A stretch of 64,000 nucleotides of DNA from an uncultured Gemmatimonadaceae bacterium (GCA_963829055.1 CAWHHI010000005.1:160001-224000), one strand, 5' to 3'; positions 45,011-52,173 are shown, numbered from the stretch's first letter. The notes: generated by a model from the letters alone, not told the origin. Numbers and translations: made by a program.

Positions 45011-45421
45011 TCCCTGTTCCGGTTCGCGCTCGACGTTCTCCGCGGCCAGCATAATATCCATCGTAGAACGTGCAGAACATGCAGCACTACGGCGCGAGAG
45101 TGTAGGCACTGCGGCGGACGAGCGAGTACACCGCGGCCGATACGTCTCATGGAGGAGTCATGGAACGGAGCAGAAGAATGGGCCAGGCACTACCGGCCGG
45201 CGTCGAGCAGCCGGACGATGCGTTCATGCGACGCATCCGCTATGTAGTGGATTTCGCGGACACGTAGGCAGAGCGGGCTCGTCAATCGTCGCGCCGTCAC
45301 CCAGTCGTTGCTTGGGCGACGACGACCACGGCGGTACCTTGGTCAGCCCGCCAGCACATCGTCGACCGCCGACGTCCCGACGATCGGACACGATCTGCCA
45401 CCCTTCGCGCCAAGACTCAGA

Positions 45422-48400
45422 ATGCGCTACCGGATTGCTCCCGCGGCAACGCTGCTCGCCGCCCTCGCACTCGCCGCCTGTTCCGGGCGCGACACCGTCC
45501 TCGCACCAGTCGCGCCGCCCGCGCCACGTGGGGATGTGGCGACTGCAGTGGCGCCGCCGACCGTCTACTTCAGCGAGATCCACTACGACAACGTCGGCGC
45601 TGACGCCGACGAGCGCATCGAGATCACCGGCCCCGCCGGCACGGACCTCACTGGCTGGCAGGTCGTGCTCTACAACGGCAACGGCGGCGTCACCTACAAC
45701 ACGCAGACGCTGAGCGGCACCATCCCGGCGACGTGCGGCGCGAACGGCGTGGTCGTCCTGACGTATCCCGCGGACGGCATCCAGAACGGCAGTCCCGACG
45801 GCATGGCGCTCGTGAACGGCGGCGGCCAGGTCGTCGAGTTCCTGTCCTACGAGGGGACGTTCGCCGCGACGAACGGGCCGGCGTTAGGCATGACGTCGGT
45901 GGACATCGGCGTGCTCGAGAACGGCGCGCCCGTTGGACAATCGCTCCAGCGGAGCAGCGCCGGCACGTGGAGCGGCCCGGTCGCGAGCACGTTCGGCGCC
46001 TGCAACGACGACGGTGGCCAACCTCCCGCCGCGGTCGCGAAGGTCACCGTCGCGCCGGCCGCGGCGTCGATCGCGCAGGGCGCCACCCAGACGTTCACCG
46101 CGACGGCCTTCGACGCGTCGAACCAGCCGGTCGCGGGCGTCACGTTCACGTGGACGAGCAGCGCCACGGCCGTCGCGACGGTGAGCGCGACCGGCGTCGC
46201 GACCGCGCTGCAACCGGGCGACGTCACGATCACGGCGACGGCGCCTAACGCCATTACCGGGACGGCGTCGCTCCACGTCGATCGCGCCGTCGACGCCGGG
46301 CCTGCCCGAAACGCGGTTCAGCGAGCTGCACTACGACAACTTCGGCACGGACGTCGACGAAGCGATCGAGATCGAAGGACCCGCGGGCACCGATCGCTCA
46401 CGGGCTGGAGCATCGTGCTCTACAACGGCAACGGCGGCGTGCAGTACAACACGCAGCCACTGACGCGGAACGATCCCCGCGACGTGCGACGCCCGCGGTG
46501 TCGTCGTCGTGAACTACCCGCAGGACGGGATCCAGAACGGCAGCCCCGACGGAATGGCACTGGTGAACGCGGCCGGTGAAGTCGTGGAGTTCCTCTCGTA
46601 CGAAGGGACGTTCACCGCGACCGATGGCCCCGCGTCAGGCAAGACCGTCGACGACATCGGTGTGTCGGAGTCATCGTCACCGCTCGGACAATCGCTGCAG
46701 CGCTACCTCGGCGGGCGTCTGGCAGCAGCCGGCGACATCGAGCTTCGGCGCCTGCAACGGTAGCGGCGGCGGCCGAACCCCGGCGGCAACACGATCAGCT
46801 TCACCGGCCGTACGCCCAGTGACCCGGCGCTTCCCGTCGGCTTCCAGGATCAGCTCTTCGCGACCGTGCGCGACGCCGAACAACGTCGACCGTCACCACG
46901 ACCATCACGTGGACGACTCGGAGACGCCGGCCATCGCGCGCATCGACCAGAACGGCGTCATCACCGCGCTCGCGGCCGGCAGCGCCACGTTCCGCGCGAC
47001 GGCCGCCGACGGCCTAACGACGGCCACGTTCGCACTCCCCGTCGCGCGTCGCGGTCGCCAGCACCACGGCGCAATACGCTGGCAACGCGGAGTTCGGCGA
47101 GCCGGCCGACAGCCGACCCGAGCGACGACTTCATCGTCCGCCACCCGGAGTACACGGCGTCGTTCAACAAGAACCGCGGCACGCCGAACTGGGTCAGCTA
47201 CGATCTCGAGGCCACGCACTTCGGCCCCGAGGACCGCTGCGACTGCTTCACGTTCGACCCGTCGCTGCCGGCTGCGTTCACGCGCTACACCACCGCCGAC
47301 TACACCGGCGCCGGCGCTGCCGCCGGTTTCGGTATCGACCGCGGCCATCTCGCCCGCTCGTTCGACCGCACGTCGGCGAGTCTCGACAACGCGTTCACGT
47401 TCCTGTTCACGAACATCGTGCCGCAGGCCGCCGACCTGAACCAGGGTCCATGGGCGACCATGGAAAACTTCCTCGGCGACCTCGCTCGGCTCCAGAACAA
47501 GGAGGTCTACATCGTCGCCGGCGTCGCGGGCAACATTGGCACGGTCAAGAACGAGGGGAAGATCGTGATCCCCGCGTCCACCTGGAAAGTCGCGGTGATC
47601 ATGCCGCGCGATCAGGGGCTCGCGACATCACGACACTCGGCGACCTCGAGGTCATCGCCGTGATCATGCCTAACCGAGCCCGGCGTGCGGAACGTCGACT
47701 GGCAGACGTACAAGACGACCGTCGACGCCGTCGAAGCGCTGAGCGGCTACGACCTGCTCGCGCTCCTGCGCGACGACATCGAGAACGCGGTCGAGAGCGG
47801 CAAGACGACAGCGGCGCCCATAGCAGCCATCGAATGGACCGTACACGTCGCTCGAAGGATCGGCGGTCGTCGATGAGCGCTGCCGGCTCCAGTGACGCGG
47901 ACGGCGGTACGCTCACGTACCTGTGGAGCTTCGGCGACGGCGGGACCGCGAGCGGCCTCGACTGTGTCGCACACGTACTCCGCGGATGGCGGCTACAACG
48001 TTAGGCTCATCGTGAACAGCTCGAGCGGGCTCGCCGATACGATCTTCACCACCGCGACGGTCGCGAACGTCGCCCCAGCCATCGCCTCGTTCGCCGGAGC
48101 TACGCTGCTTCCGGGCGAGACGTACGCTGCCACGGGATCGTTCACGGATCCGGGCACGGACGCGTGGACGGCGACGGTCGACTACGGCGATGGCTCGGGA
48201 CTCGTACCGCTGGCCCTCTCCGGCAAGACGTTCTCGCTCTCGCACACGTACGCCGGCGCTGGCTCCTTCACCGTCACGGTCCGCGTGAGGGACGACGACG
48301 TCACCTCGACGCGGACTGCGACGGTGACGGTGCTGACGCCGGAGGAGGGCATCGACAAGGCGATCGCGATCGTGAATGAGCTCCTGGCAGACGGAAAGAT

Positions 48401-48678
48401 CGACGCCGGCATCGCGAGCTCGCTCACGTCGAAGCTCGGCGGCGCGAAGACGTCGCTTCTGCACGAGACCACACACGCCGCGCTCGGAAAGCTCGAAGCC
48501 GTGCTCGATGAGCTCGAATGCCCTGATACACGGAGGTCACGTGTCCGCCTCGGACGTCGACGCGTTGCACGAGCTCGTCGAGCGCGTCATCAAGTCGATT
48601 ACGTACGTGCACCTTGTCATTCCGAGCGAGACGGCAGACGGGAGACGAGGAATCGAGGAATCCATGAGCTGCCGGTAG
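45422..48678 (+). CDS. Modular lipoprotein nuclease: 2x lamin-tail-like + Ig-like + DNA/RNA non-specific endonuclease + PKD (frameshifted)
   Basis: LAAC lipobox; duplicated FSE.HYDN..IQNGSPDG..VEFLSYEG domain; PNWVSY, DRGHLA, NIVPQ..LNQGPW..ME; true stop may lie near 48605, before the repeat. Confidence 0.8.
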
Positions 48679-48748
48679 AGAGGCTCCCTCTACCCGGCAT
48701 CCCAAGATTCCTCGACTCCGCCGCTTCGCGGCTTCGCTCGGAATGCAC
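48616..48748. repeat. REP-like element type I
   Basis: GTCATTCCGAGCG..GAGGAATC..GGTAGAG/CTCTACC..GATTCCTC..CGCTCGGAATG. Confidence 0.8.
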
Positions 48749-48778
48749 GGCTGTAACGGCAGGTTTACTCTTAGCCGC

Positions 48779-49120
48779 ATGATGCTCCGCGCGCGCAACC
48801 TGTTCCTGGCCTGGCTCACCTACGGCGCCCTGCAGCTCGCGCTGCTGGGCGTCCCGGGCGCAGCCGCGCAGCCAGGCGTCGGGAATCGCGACGCACGGTC
48901 GCAGTCCGAGTCCCAGTCGGTCTCGTTCGGCAAGCGCCTCGTCGCGCCCGACAGCATCGACCGTCGGACCCCGACGACGCCGTTCGCGCCGTCGCGCCAC
49001 ATTGGCCTCGATCTGCCCGTCGTCGCAGGCAGCACGGCCGTCGTTGTCCCGCAGCACCACGACGGCTCCGACGCATCGCTCGCCCTCCCACCCGCACGCG
49101 CTCCACCCGCTCTCGCCTGA
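48779..49120 (+). CDS. Putative secretion-monitoring translation arrest peptide (RAPP) upstream of secDF
   Basis: 113 aa; basic/hydrophobic signal ending AAAQ, low-complexity linker, C-terminal ARAPPALA*; ends 123 nt before secDF. Confidence 0.7.
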   Translation: MMLRARNLFLAWLTYGALQLALLGVPGAAAQPGVGNRDARSQSESQSVSFGKRLVAPDSIDRRTPTTPFAPSRHIGLDLPVVAGSTAVVVPQHHDGSDASLALPPARAPPALA

Positions 49121-49211
49121 GCCGTCGCGCCTCTTCGGCGCGCCCATCACAACTCCGCCGGTCTTCACCTAACGCCGCCCGCGTCCGCGAGCAGGCGTGG
49201 CCGGCGCACGG

Positions 49212-49232
49212 CTTTCCGCGACCCGCGGAAGG
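49212..49232 (+). promoter_or_regulatory. Hairpin overlapping the secDF Shine-Dalgarno sequence
   Basis: CTTTCCGCG-ACC-CGCGGAAGG pairs over the GGAAGG part of GGAAGGAG, which precedes ATG 49244. Confidence 0.5.
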
Positions 49233-49243
49233 AGAGCAGCCAC

Positions 49244-51896
49244 ATGAAATCGATCAGGTGGCGAGTGATCATCATCCTCGCCCTCGTTGTCGCGAGCGTC
49301 TTCGCGCTCGTACCCCGCAGCGTCAAGCAGCGCCTCTACGACTCGCGCACCGGTCAGATGCGCGACACCACCGTCCGCCGCGTTCCCATCAACATGGGCC
49401 TCGACCTTCGCGGCGGTGTTCACCTCGCGCTCGAGGTCGACGAGTCGCGCGGCAAAGTCGCCGATTGCGCCGACGCGATCCGTCGCGCCGAACGCGTCGT
49501 GCGCGCACGCATCGACGAGTTCGGAACGACGGAGCCCGTCGTCCAGATCGCGAGCGACTGTCGCCTGGTTGTCGAGCTTCCCGGCGAGACCGATCCCGCA
49601 CGCGCCCGGTCGATCGTCGAACGCACGGCGTTCCTCGAGTTCCGCATCACGGACGCGAAGGAGCAATTCCGGCGCGCGCTCCCCTCGATCGATGTCGCGT
49701 TGCGACGAGCGGGAGTTGCAAACGCCGCGGCGCCGCGGACGACCGCCAGCGCAGATGTCGTCACCGGTCTCCTCTCGCCCGACAGTGCGCGTGCTACGAC
49801 TGACACCACGATCAACGCGGCCAACGCCACGACCGAGGGCGGCGTGCTGTCGTCGCTCCTCACGCCTGGTCGTGTCCCTGGAGAATTCATCGTCGCCGAA
49901 GAAAGCGTCGCTCAGGTCGAGCAGCTGATCGCGAAGCCGGAGGTGCAGCAACTCGTTCCGCGCGGACTCGAGCTGCGATGGGGCACACCGATCGCGACGC
50001 GAGAGACGCGAGCGTTCCGGCCACTTTACGCGCTGCAGTCGCGAGCCATCATCACCGGCGAGGAAATCCAGAAAGCCGTCGCTGGCCGAGACCCCACGAC
50101 CAACGCGGCCGAAGTGCAGTTCGAGCTCACGCGGCCCGGCGGACGCCAGTTCGGCGACGCGACCGGTCGCAACATCGGCAATCACCTCGCGATCCTGCTC
50201 GACGGGCGCGTACAGGGCGAGCCGCCCGTCATCCGCGACCGCATCACGTCGAACGGACGCATCGAGCTCGGTGGCAAGTCGCTCGAGGAAGCAAACGACC
50301 TCGCGCTCATGCTGCGCGCCGGCGCGCTTCCGGTACCGCTCCATGTCGTCGCCCAGGGAACCATCGGCCCGTCGCTCGGCATGGACTCCATCCGCGATGG
50401 CGTGCGCGCGTCGGCGCTTGCGGTTGGGTTCGTGCTGGTCGTCATGGGCGCGTACTACGGATTCGCCGGACTCCTCGCTGTCGCCGCGCTCGCCCTGTAC
50501 GTGCTCTACTGCCTTGGCGGTCTCGCCGTGTTCGGGTTCAACCTGACGCTCCCGGGACTCGCGGGCTTCGCGCTGTCCATCGGAATGGCGGTCGACGCGA
50601 ACGTGCTGATCTTCGAGCGCATGCGCGAAGAGCTCGACGCGGGGAAACCCGTTAGGCGCGCGATCGATGAAGGGTTTCGGCACGCGATGAGCGCCATCGT
50701 CGACTCGAACGTCACGACCGCGCTCACCGCGCTGATCCTGTACGTGGTGGGCACGGGACCCGTGCAGGGATTCGCGATCACGCTGCTCGTCGGACTCGTG
50801 GCGTCGATGGTCACCGCCGTCTTCGTCACGCGCACGTTCTTCCTCGTGTGGGTGAAAGCGCGTCCGAACATGACGACGCTTGAAGCATTTCACGTTCAGG
50901 CTGTTCGCGAACGCGCGCTACGACTTCATCGGCGTGCGACGCTGGGCGTACGGCGTGACGGCCGCGCTGATCGTGCCGGGCATGATCATGCTCGCCGCGA
51001 CTGGGCATCACGTACAGCATCGAGTTCACGGGCGGTGCGCTGATGCACGTGCGCACGGACGACGCCCGTGGAGACGACACGCCTCCGCACCGCGCTCGAG
51101 CGCGGCGGTGTGAACAACCCGGAGATTCAGAGCTTCGGCTCGGCGCAGGAGTACGTGATCCGCGCTCGTCTCGACGGAGCCGCGGACGGCAACACGCGGA
51201 GCGCCGAGATCGCGGCGTCGGTGAGCAAGGCGCTCGATGCCGACCTGGGCACGGGCACGTATCAGATCGTGCGCAGCGAGGGCGTCAGCTCCGAAGGTCG
51301 GCGGTGAGCTTCAGGAGAAAGCGCTCATCGCGATTCTCTTCAGCTTCGTCGCGACGCTCATCTACCTCGCGTTCCGCTTCGAGTGGCGCTTCGGCCTCGC
51401 GGCCGTGATCGCGACGGCGCACGACGTGCTCGCGACGGTCGCGTTCATTCGCTACCTGGATCTCGAGGTGAGTCTCGTCGTGGTGGCGGCGGTGCTCACG
51501 GTACTCGGCTACTCGCTCAACGACACGATCGTGATCTTCGATCGCGTGCGCGAGAACGTGAAGCTCCACGCGCGCAAGCCGCTGGCGGAGTTGTTGAATC
51601 TTTCGATCAACGAGACGTTGCCGCGGACGATACTCACCGGCGGCACGACGCTGGCGACGGCGCTCGTGCTCTCGTTCTTCGCCGGCGAGGTGATCAAGCC
51701 GTTCGCGCTGGTGATGACGTTCGGCATCATCGTCGGCACGTTCTCTTCGATCTTCGTCGCGTCGCCGGTGCTGCTCGGCATAACGCGGCGTTGGGGCACT
51801 CCGAAGCCGAGTACAAGCAGCAGTGTCATCCGCGCAGCCGAGCCAGCGCGTGTCATCCCGAGCGGCAGCGAGGGACCTTCCGTGACGTCATCGTAG
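49244..51896 (+). CDS. secDF: Protein translocase SecDF, probably fused (frameshifted)
   Basis: MGLDLRGG, LRAGALP, IGPSLG, IGMAVDANVLIFER, IVDSNVTT (SecD); IEFTGG, RFEW, HDV, GYSLNDTIVIFDRVREN, GTFSSIFVA (SecF); no stop or SD between the halves, with a 1-nt shift near 50880. Confidence 0.9.
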
Positions 51897-52173
51897 CCAG
51901 GGCCTGAACGACAACACCAACAGCAAACGGCAACTGCATGACAGGATTGGCAGGATGGACAGGATTGAACAGAGGCTCCGTGTCGCACGCAGGGCCCCTC
52001 CCGCAACGAGCCCGGAACGAGGGGAACGGCCGCTCGGGACGCCACTCTCCGAGAGATGTGTTCCTTCATTCGTTAGGCCCCGCGACACGCTCCCGACGCC
52101 GAGGCGGTCATCTTCTCAATCCTGCCAATCCTGGCCATCCTGTCTGCTGTTGCGGTTGCCGTTTGCGGTTGTC
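51852..52173. repeat. Composite repeat: type II arm plus ACAGGATTG/CAATCCTG inverted pair
   Basis: GTCATCCCGAGCG at 51852; ACAGGATTGGCAGGATGGACAGGATT at 51941; AATCCTGCCAATCCTGGCCATCCTGTC at 52118. Confidence 0.72.

Follow-up and report, generated by a model that had tools for sequence, protein, structure and literature searches.

Upstream of a second, fused copy of the protein export gene secDF, the genome of an uncultured Gemmatimonadaceae bacterium contains a small open reading frame (ORF) whose product is predicted to arrest the ribosome that translates it. The ORF lies in a 64,000-nucleotide stretch (GCA_963829055.1 CAWHHI010000005.1:160001-224000), here called the window, and encodes a leader that begins with a hydrophobic segment and ends shortly after the motif Arg-Ala-Pro-Pro (RAPP). 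Sequence comparisons make it fairly probable, in our judgment, that two things hold jointly: the leader stalls at RAPP and frees secDF for translation until export pulls on it, and it descends from a metal-sensing leader of the CruR kind.

According to the mechanism that we propose, a ribosome would stall at the Arg-Ala-Pro-Pro of the leader, and the stalled ribosome would unmask the secDF ribosome-binding site. Protein export would pull the leader peptide free and end the stall, so that slow export would raise secDF expression. The source would be a type of cassette, consisting of a leader and a hairpin, that heads genes for TonB receptors and other metal transport functions in Gemmatimonadales. 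Such a cassette would have been placed before a secD-secF copy within or close to a single sub-lineage of a different family; its Cys/His site would have been lost, and the cassette would have moved laterally into the genus of the window and into another order.

Conservation of the leader upstream of a second secDF

Translation of positions 48779-49120 agrees with an earlier description of this DNA made from the nucleotides alone (the sequence-only reading), which had reported a 113-amino-acid ORF with RAPP (49097-49108) three codons upstream of the stop. Because RAPP is frequent by chance in a GC-rich genome, the motif by itself is no proof, and we used conservation as the test; 40 of 2123 six-frame RAPPs in the bacterium's own genome stand three codons before a stop, and shuffled motifs gave similar results. 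The leader is present in all six congeneric genomes, with a length of 111-113 amino acids, an identical distance from RAPP to the stop, and a position 141-147 nt upstream of the second secDF (123 nt in the window). It also occurs in genomes G007 (another genus) and G716 and in both G598 and G568 (another order), and secD follows it in 11 genomes wherever the DNA shows the next gene. Eleven metagenome loci carry the leader as well; nine run into secD, one contig ends first, and one was not parsed. When 110 secD loci were viewed from the opposite side, 13 had the leader and 92 had ribF directly upstream, none of these 92 with a leader; the remaining 5 lacked upstream DNA. Five genomes flagged as unpublished (G013, G107, G224, G278, and G376) contribute to counts alone, and none of our conclusions rests on them.

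Conservation is strongest at the C terminus. Among the best 120 of 162 protein matches, 113 homologs end in RAPP, 6 in RGPP, and 1 in RPPP, with three residues after RAPP in 104 of the 113, and RAPP or RGPP is kept in 45 of 49 distant matches at 25-50% identity. Signal and motif were thus conserved among orthologs, a check that the sequence-only reading had proposed. For the whole leader, the ratio of nonsynonymous to synonymous substitution rates in 13 orthologs was 0.48; by region, it was 0.10 in the tail (the last 11 codons), 0.31 in the central core, 0.39 in the signal, and 0.81 in the 20 residues after the core. Five residues of the spacer core (R, T, P, F, and P at -44 to -36 from the Arg) are 94-98% conserved. 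The secDF-linked leader is rare: a sample of 401 genomes from the whole phylum contained it in 3, the bacterium's own included. A tight DNA pattern of the tail returned only the seven loci already known from the genome collection, and a search with the G598 SecD gave no further leader among the matches listed. Ten weak matches to the leader profile were also considered; the one in G598 is a true leader, and the other nine were dropped for want of an ORF with RAPP and a stop.

The N terminus is basic and then hydrophobic in 17 of 17 orthologs as judged by hydropathy only, and the most hydrophobic 15-residue stretch is N-terminal in 16 of these; in the window leader, residues 75-89 score slightly higher. 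The Sec-type signal described by the sequence-only reading stands as a hydrophobic N terminus; the putative cleavage site after AAA is not kept in all orthologs. Inspection by eye revealed no Tat or lipoprotein signal consensus. Signal and motif are separated by 82-86 residues in the 16 orthologs with an N-terminal hydrophobic window and by about 83 in the window leader, as placed by alignment. Helix 2-23 is the sole confident element of an AlphaFold2 model (predicted local distance difference test, 78-91), with disorder elsewhere and a predicted template modeling score of 0.22. Library scans matched the ORF to no Pfam or NCBIfam family.

Table 1. Positions of the leader, its predicted control elements, and secDF in the window
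Feature	Position	Strand	Remarks
Predicted -10 hexamer TACTCT	48766..48771	+	7 nt before the leader ATG, with no Shine-Dalgarno sequence between
Leader ORF (candidate arrest peptide), 113 amino acids	48779..49120	+	Ends R-A-P-P-A-L-A-stop
N-terminal export signal or membrane anchor	48779..48868	+	Basic n-region; hydrophobic residues 8-24
Conserved spacer core, residues 62-80, RR-x-x-TPF-x-P ... RLDLP	48962..49018	+	At the position of the metal-type C-x-x-C/H, 44-48 residues upstream of the Arg; register from hhalign
Arrest region L-P-P-A-R-A-P-P-A-L-A-stop (predicted)	49085..49120	+	The same codons form the anti-Shine-Dalgarno strand
GC hairpin right after the leader stop	49126..49142	+	Consensus helix from RNAalifold, each position being paired in 11-15 of 15 sequences
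Large intergenic hairpin bringing leader 3' end and Shine-Dalgarno region together	49156..49206	+	Minimum free energy folds of 10 loci; inner helix in the consensus
secDF Shine-Dalgarno region GGAGAGC	49231..49237	+	Predicted paired with leader codons when the ribosome is absent
Second, fused secDF, about 882 amino acids	49244..51896	+	SecD and SecF models (TIGR01129 and TIGR00966) above cutoff

The gene downstream had been called a fused secDF. In the window it has four reading-frame breaks, at one-base insertions (50876, 51001, 51061, and 51288). Near-identical contigs lack these insertions in 2, 3, 2, and 3 of four runs, respectively, and the congeneric genes are single ORFs of 867-882 amino acids. 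Because the insertions are missing from those contigs and the congeneric genes are unbroken, the description as fused holds, and the four frameshifts are likely to be assembly errors; a pseudogene was considered and rejected on the same evidence. One near-identical metagenome contig has many indels in the gene upstream of the leader and none in the leader, the intergenic region, or the first 350 secD codons. The housekeeping copy that the sequence-only reading had suggested looking for is present on contig C16 as split secD and secF genes after infB-rbfA-truB-ribF, without a leader. Two secD copies occur in the bacterium's own genome, in 6/6 congeners, and in 4/4 distant carriers.

Taken together, the conservation of the leader, the second secD-secF, and the base pairing described below support as likely the proposal of the sequence-only reading that a RAPP export-monitor leader regulates a secondary SecDF.

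Homology to metal-type leaders

The profile built from the secDF leaders also matched five ORFs in a second family (family 2) that precede TonB-dependent receptor genes, two of which were confirmed by the Pfam domain Plug. These ORFs encode proteins of 112-117 amino acids with a signal, the motifs H-x-E-S-H and C-x-x-x-H-x-x-D-C-x-x-C/H, and the same RAPP ending. Of the order's 301 genomes, 80 have a leader of this metal type. The C-x-x-C/H lies 43-45 residues before the Arg in 29 of the 30 top loci that could be parsed, a set chosen by a pattern requiring one Cys, and the CxxC of CruR, described as critical for sensing, lies 45 residues before RAPP (PMC9426467). The conserved core of the secDF leader begins exactly at the second-ligand position of the metal type, and Cys is absent after residue 25 in 127 of 129 secDF-type leaders.

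Profile comparisons point to a relationship that extends beyond the shared ending. Alignment of the secDF and metal profiles by hhalign gave a probability of 98.2 over the full length and 96.6 (E, 5.7e-10) with the tail removed. Against 3438 signal-like control sequences from the bacterium's own genome, 22 of 29 metal leaders scored above the 99.9th percentile on the tail-less secDF profile, and 11 did so when just the middle was used. Conversely, of 129 secDF-type leaders, 70 (tail-less) and 14 (middle alone) exceeded this level. When the metal profile was compared with 77,198 six-frame genome segments, the window leader ranked second (E, 1.3e-5). A search of 1.84 billion proteins with the secDF-leader profile, which was built without metal-type sequences, returned 49 matches; 45 end in RAPP or RGPP, and three are Cys/His proteins of the metal type (E values of 2e-9, 4e-7, and 4e-4). 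Two Cys-less sequences resemble decayed intermediates: in P0144, Cys and His of the ligand motif are replaced but the motif's spacing is retained and a secDF-type core follows, and P0141 keeps part of the motif without Cys.

With these alignments, and with the length, -10 spacing, and anti-Shine-Dalgarno register that the two groups share (see below), we regard homology between the secDF leader and the Cys/His leaders of the CruR/DUF2946 kind as highly probable. The window leader is not itself a member of DUF2946, since it has no Pfam match (PF11162; cutoff, 23.7 bits) and no CxxC, yet it likely derives from that kind. Metal-type relatives score 10.8-22.8 bits on PF11162, the upper value belonging to one of the three Cys/His matches from the protein search. 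The nearest ESM Atlas clusters include some named for DUF2946, which we take as a lead only.

The bacterium's own genome contains two metal-type leaders. One (G000:C12:136319-136666; L191, L317) is a Cys/His RAPP leader before an outer membrane protein gene and an operon for ZnuA, an ABC ATPase, and an ABC-3 permease. The other (G000:C20:300597-300983, minus strand; L318) is divergent and precedes an efflux set of the OEP, HlyD, and ACR/AcrB families; such an efflux target would require control of the opposite sign to that of an uptake target.

Origin of the secDF-linked leader

In a SecD tree of 64 rows, all 13 leader-bearing rows form one clade (Shimodaira-Hasegawa-like approximate likelihood ratio test [SH-aLRT], 100). 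This clade is sister (SH-aLRT, 99) to the housekeeping SecD of one family-2 sub-lineage and stands apart from the housekeeping copies of its hosts. The same sub-lineage gave the top metal-leader matches, in searches that rank by score and not by descent. Local duplication, modeled by holding the leader-bearing SecD with family-1 SecD, was rejected by the approximately unbiased (AU) test (p-AU, 2e-5; 26 rows). A tree of the leaders themselves splits 25 Cys-less rows from 33 metal rows (support, 96). Because this tree is unrooted, the direction of descent rests on distribution: the metal type is widespread, and the secDF type is rare and nested. Similarity and tree shape thus suggest that the secDF leader likely descends from a metal-sensing CruR-like leader that lost its ligands, the direction being drawn from distribution. 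It is likewise likely from these comparisons that a metal-sensing stalling cassette came to precede a copy of secDF, that its metal site then disappeared, and that it spread sideways. A fuller version seems to us moderately probable. According to it, the entire cassette of leaderless promoter, RAPP leader, and anti-Shine-Dalgarno (anti-SD) strand, of the CruR/DUF2946 kind, moved to secDF, was deprived of its Cys/His ligands and so came to be released by export force alone, and spread between Gemmatimonadota orders; decayed intermediates would survive, and a relay ORF present in two genomes (see below) would perhaps be a stump.

Predicted RNA switch and promoter

Folding of the free mRNA joined the Shine-Dalgarno (SD) region of secDF, in 10 of the 10 loci first folded, to leader codons situated between L-P-P and the stop. 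Three registers occur: the partner is formed in most loci by the codons that follow RAPP, in one subgroup by the A-L-P codons, and in the window by the R-A-P codons, about 110 nt from the SD and with two hairpins between. ApdA, ApdP, and CruR are reported to stall with the first Pro in the P site (PMC12992588, PMC10951233), and a ribosome so positioned on the leader is predicted to cover the partner codons of all three registers, GCTCTC included. The sequence-only reading had paired the SD with GCTCTC (49109-14), which is indeed complementary to GAGAGC (49232-37) and lies under the footprint; however, its pairing probability is 0.01-0.34, and the R-A-P codons (49098-104; 0.44-0.97) are the likelier partner. 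A local hairpin at 49212-49232, offered as the alternative structure, adjoins the SD but covers bases just 5' of the SD core and not the core itself.

With the footprint (-20 to +22 around the Arg) removed, the start region became cheaper to open by 2 kcal/mol or more at 13 of the 17 secDF loci and 19 of the 24 metal loci; an equally long cut farther upstream had this effect at 0 of the 17 and at 3 of the 24. When the footprint was slid along the mRNA, 8 of 10 loci had a lower cost with it at the stall site. The anti-SD helix can be aligned in one register across the secDF and metal groups; over 34 distinct rows, its core positions are 88-100% paired. At this helix, 272 of 408 cells are Watson-Crick pairs, against a shuffled mean of 243, and compensatory pair types are present; the register was chosen to fit, and kin among the rows are not independent. 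Helices reach 12 bp in the metal loci. A scan of the intergenic region found no intrinsic terminator. These models make an RNA switch that frees the secDF SD plausible.

Two loci have an additional short ORF between leader and secDF, of 12 codons in G007 (L111:2552-2590) and 24 codons in G716 (L035:2930-3004). Each owns an SD that is paired with the leader, and its stop overlaps the secDF start (ATGA); a translational relay is possible. The G007 ORF starts like some receptor N termini, and one might speculate from this one case that it is the stump of a former downstream gene.

The leader transcript is likely to be leaderless, since a -10 box adjoins the ATG with no SD between. All 17 leader loci have a TAnnnT hexamer that stops 6-10 nt short of the ATG, compared with 227 of 17704 random ATGs (1.3%); kin among the loci are not independent, but two orders are spanned. 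An SD-like word precedes the ATG at only one of the 17. A strict scan for sigma-70 promoters found nothing. TAnnnT occurs at the same spacing in 19 of 29 metal-type leaders. Six family-2 metal-type leaders (L164, L165, L168, L169, L170, and L172) are without a -10 box. Among the loci read, the metal-type leaders L149, L152, and L153 sit directly behind a ZnuB-like permease gene and therefore seem to work within an operon.

Surroundings of the leader-secDF unit

Upstream of the leader, positions 45308-48680 encode a large secreted endonuclease (Endonuclease_NS, PKD-like repeats) that is fragmented in the window and a single ORF in the near-identical contig L194; one-base assembly indels affect many genes of the window. 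Short elements resembling inverted repeats, at about 48690-48760 and 51860-51940, have very high contig depth in all four runs, which suggests that the elements bounding the leader-secDF unit are dispersed intergenic repeats. A cation/proton antiporter gene with a TrkA-C domain lies 3' of secDF, from a few bases to about 70 nt away, in five congeners (L031, L032, L033, L034, and L036) and is absent from the position just after secDF in the window. The leader-bearing secDF of G568 (L316, G568:C3) has an apparent frameshift after 617 codons.

Alternative explanations

Several results weigh against the proposed stalling and descent. G007 and G598 show no drop in the sliding-footprint test, the drop in the window is just 1.8 kcal/mol (12.5 to 10.7), and the window SD re-pairs with mRNA upstream of the ribosome if that mRNA stays free. 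Synonymous recoding of the secDF loci matches the pairing of the real codons in a median of 25% of trials, and cognate pairs outdo swapped ones in just 9 of 15, in a test in which the footprint cut takes away some of the helix on which one subgroup relies. The anti-SD helix was missing from the RNAalifold consensus of 15 secDF loci, in which the SD columns are poorly aligned. On the side of descent, hhalign without tail and signal gave a probability of 24.2 (E, 8e-4), and in the bacterium's own genome the tail-less window leader fell outside the four listed segments and was not significant against the metal profile. P0144 and P0141 come from short contigs. The leader tree has no root, the SecD and leader trees came from quick searches, and the group for the AU test was named after the first tree had been seen. 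Finally, most RAPP-like proteins tried in Escherichia coli and Bacillus subtilis did not stall (PMC10987492).

Part of this evidence could be read as convergence, with the leader an ordinary, independently evolved RQH monitor that has come to share with metal leaders a signal peptide, RAPP, SD-complementary codons, and a leaderless promoter common in the phylum. The weak match of the middle alone and the failure of Pfam DUF2946 to detect the leader fit this explanation, and it is the kind of origin that the authors of a survey of RAPP monitors favor (PMC10987492). We nonetheless consider it rather unlikely: the register is nearly gap-free over 92-114 columns, signal-like controls from the same genome score far lower, decayed intermediates exist, E values reach 2e-9 against a whole library, and the SecD tree indicates the same donor lineage. 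Common descent with a different output is a separate matter. CruR acts on transcription (PMC9426467), and if the leader descends from a CruR-like type, the same stall could keep Rho off a C-rich intergenic tract. The unpaired C-rich stretches, the lack of an intrinsic terminator in our scan, and the small folding effect in the window agree with such an output, which we hold to be improbable because most loci of both the secDF and the metal group have an SD paired to codons that the footprint covers, compensatory pair types among them, and because the helices of the metal loci are long; the two modes can coexist.

Another explanation retains the stall and gives the core at the old metal site a sensing role, by which a periplasmic partner, a chaperone, or a small ligand would gate release. 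Outside the tail, no part of the leader is better conserved than the core, which occupies the sensing position of CruR, and the length of the leader is fixed at 108-113 amino acids, while the Sec monitors published so far have spacers of widely differing length (PMC10987492). Set against this, nearly all secDF-type leaders lack the Cys, the core is just partly kept in the two most distant leaders, and the release-assisting spacer elements of SecM and VemP fit a monitor of export, so that a second signal appears doubtful, to about the same degree as control through Rho. A small secreted protein that merely travels with secDF is barely credible. Such a protein could be argued from the facts that the function of the leader is a prediction from sequence and that chance often places RAPP close to a stop within a single genome, but purifying selection is strongest on the tail, the model is disordered past the signal, and the motif persists in matches of low identity. 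Stalling at RAPP, with release by export and ancestry among the metal leaders, thus remains the reading that we prefer.

Comparison with known arrest peptides

The leader has the sequence characters of the RQH class and is predicted to arrest translation. A conserved C-terminal RAPP-like motif is found in three or more upstream ORFs (uORFs) of one order, and the spacer exceeds 30 residues, as that class demands of small unannotated uORFs lying directly before secA, secDF, or yidC. Like the RQH family, which includes ApdA and ApdP (PMC10987492, PMC10951233), it is a small uORF with an export signal and a C-terminal RAPP, placed before a second secDF whose SD is predicted to be masked by a helix that a stalled ribosome would break. 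The closest worked example is uDF_RQH_Enterobacterales, before secDF2 (PMC10987492). In contrast to that family, the window leader has a fixed length, a conserved spacer core, a likely leaderless mRNA, and an SD distant from its partner; it also has detectable homology to non-Sec leaders, which RAPP monitors are said to lack (PMC10987492). Like the leader as proposed here, SecM and VemP raise a downstream export component by a stall that force releases, and VemP also controls a second secDF, but their motifs differ, and Pfam and NCBIfam scans revealed no similarity to the leader. CruR of Bordetella and CutF of Rhodobacter (DUF2946/PF11162; PMC9426467, bioRxiv 2025.02.05.636593) have a CxxC about 45 residues before RAPP and control metal transporters, whereas the window leader has no Cys, ligand motif, or Pfam match and is followed by secDF; CruR, like most of the leaders, has three residues after RAPP (PMC9426467).

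Published secDF candidates (PMC10987492) may already include the leader, as a group or an orphan. The main text of that survey does not name Gemmatimonadota, which appear only in the genome list of the supplements searched, and the signal motif of the leader was not found in the examined part of the RAPP list of PMC12992588. Our literature search, which did not cover subscription journals, found nothing joining arrest peptides with a Gemmatimonad and no printed link between secDF and metal leaders.

Implications

Whether RAPP arrest peptides share an origin has been posed as an open question, with repeated independent invention favored because no similarity was seen outside the motif (PMC10987492). 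The probable ancestry among metal leaders runs counter to that preference. A plain RQH member would be routine; what is new here is the likely origin from a metal-sensing cassette. The sequence-only reading had noted neither the probable homology to metal-sensing leaders nor the likely leaderless promoter nor the proposed lateral movement of the cassette. Export-type and metal-type leaders that can be aligned over their whole length occur in the same genome with the same predicted RNA switch. If our interpretation is correct, this would be a first traceable case of RAPP monitors arising through the reuse of a cassette. A 2025 follow-up asks whether force-dependent release also underlies metal-sensing arrest peptides (PMC12992588), and the leaders described here would provide matched natural pairs for asking what makes a force-released stall metal gated.

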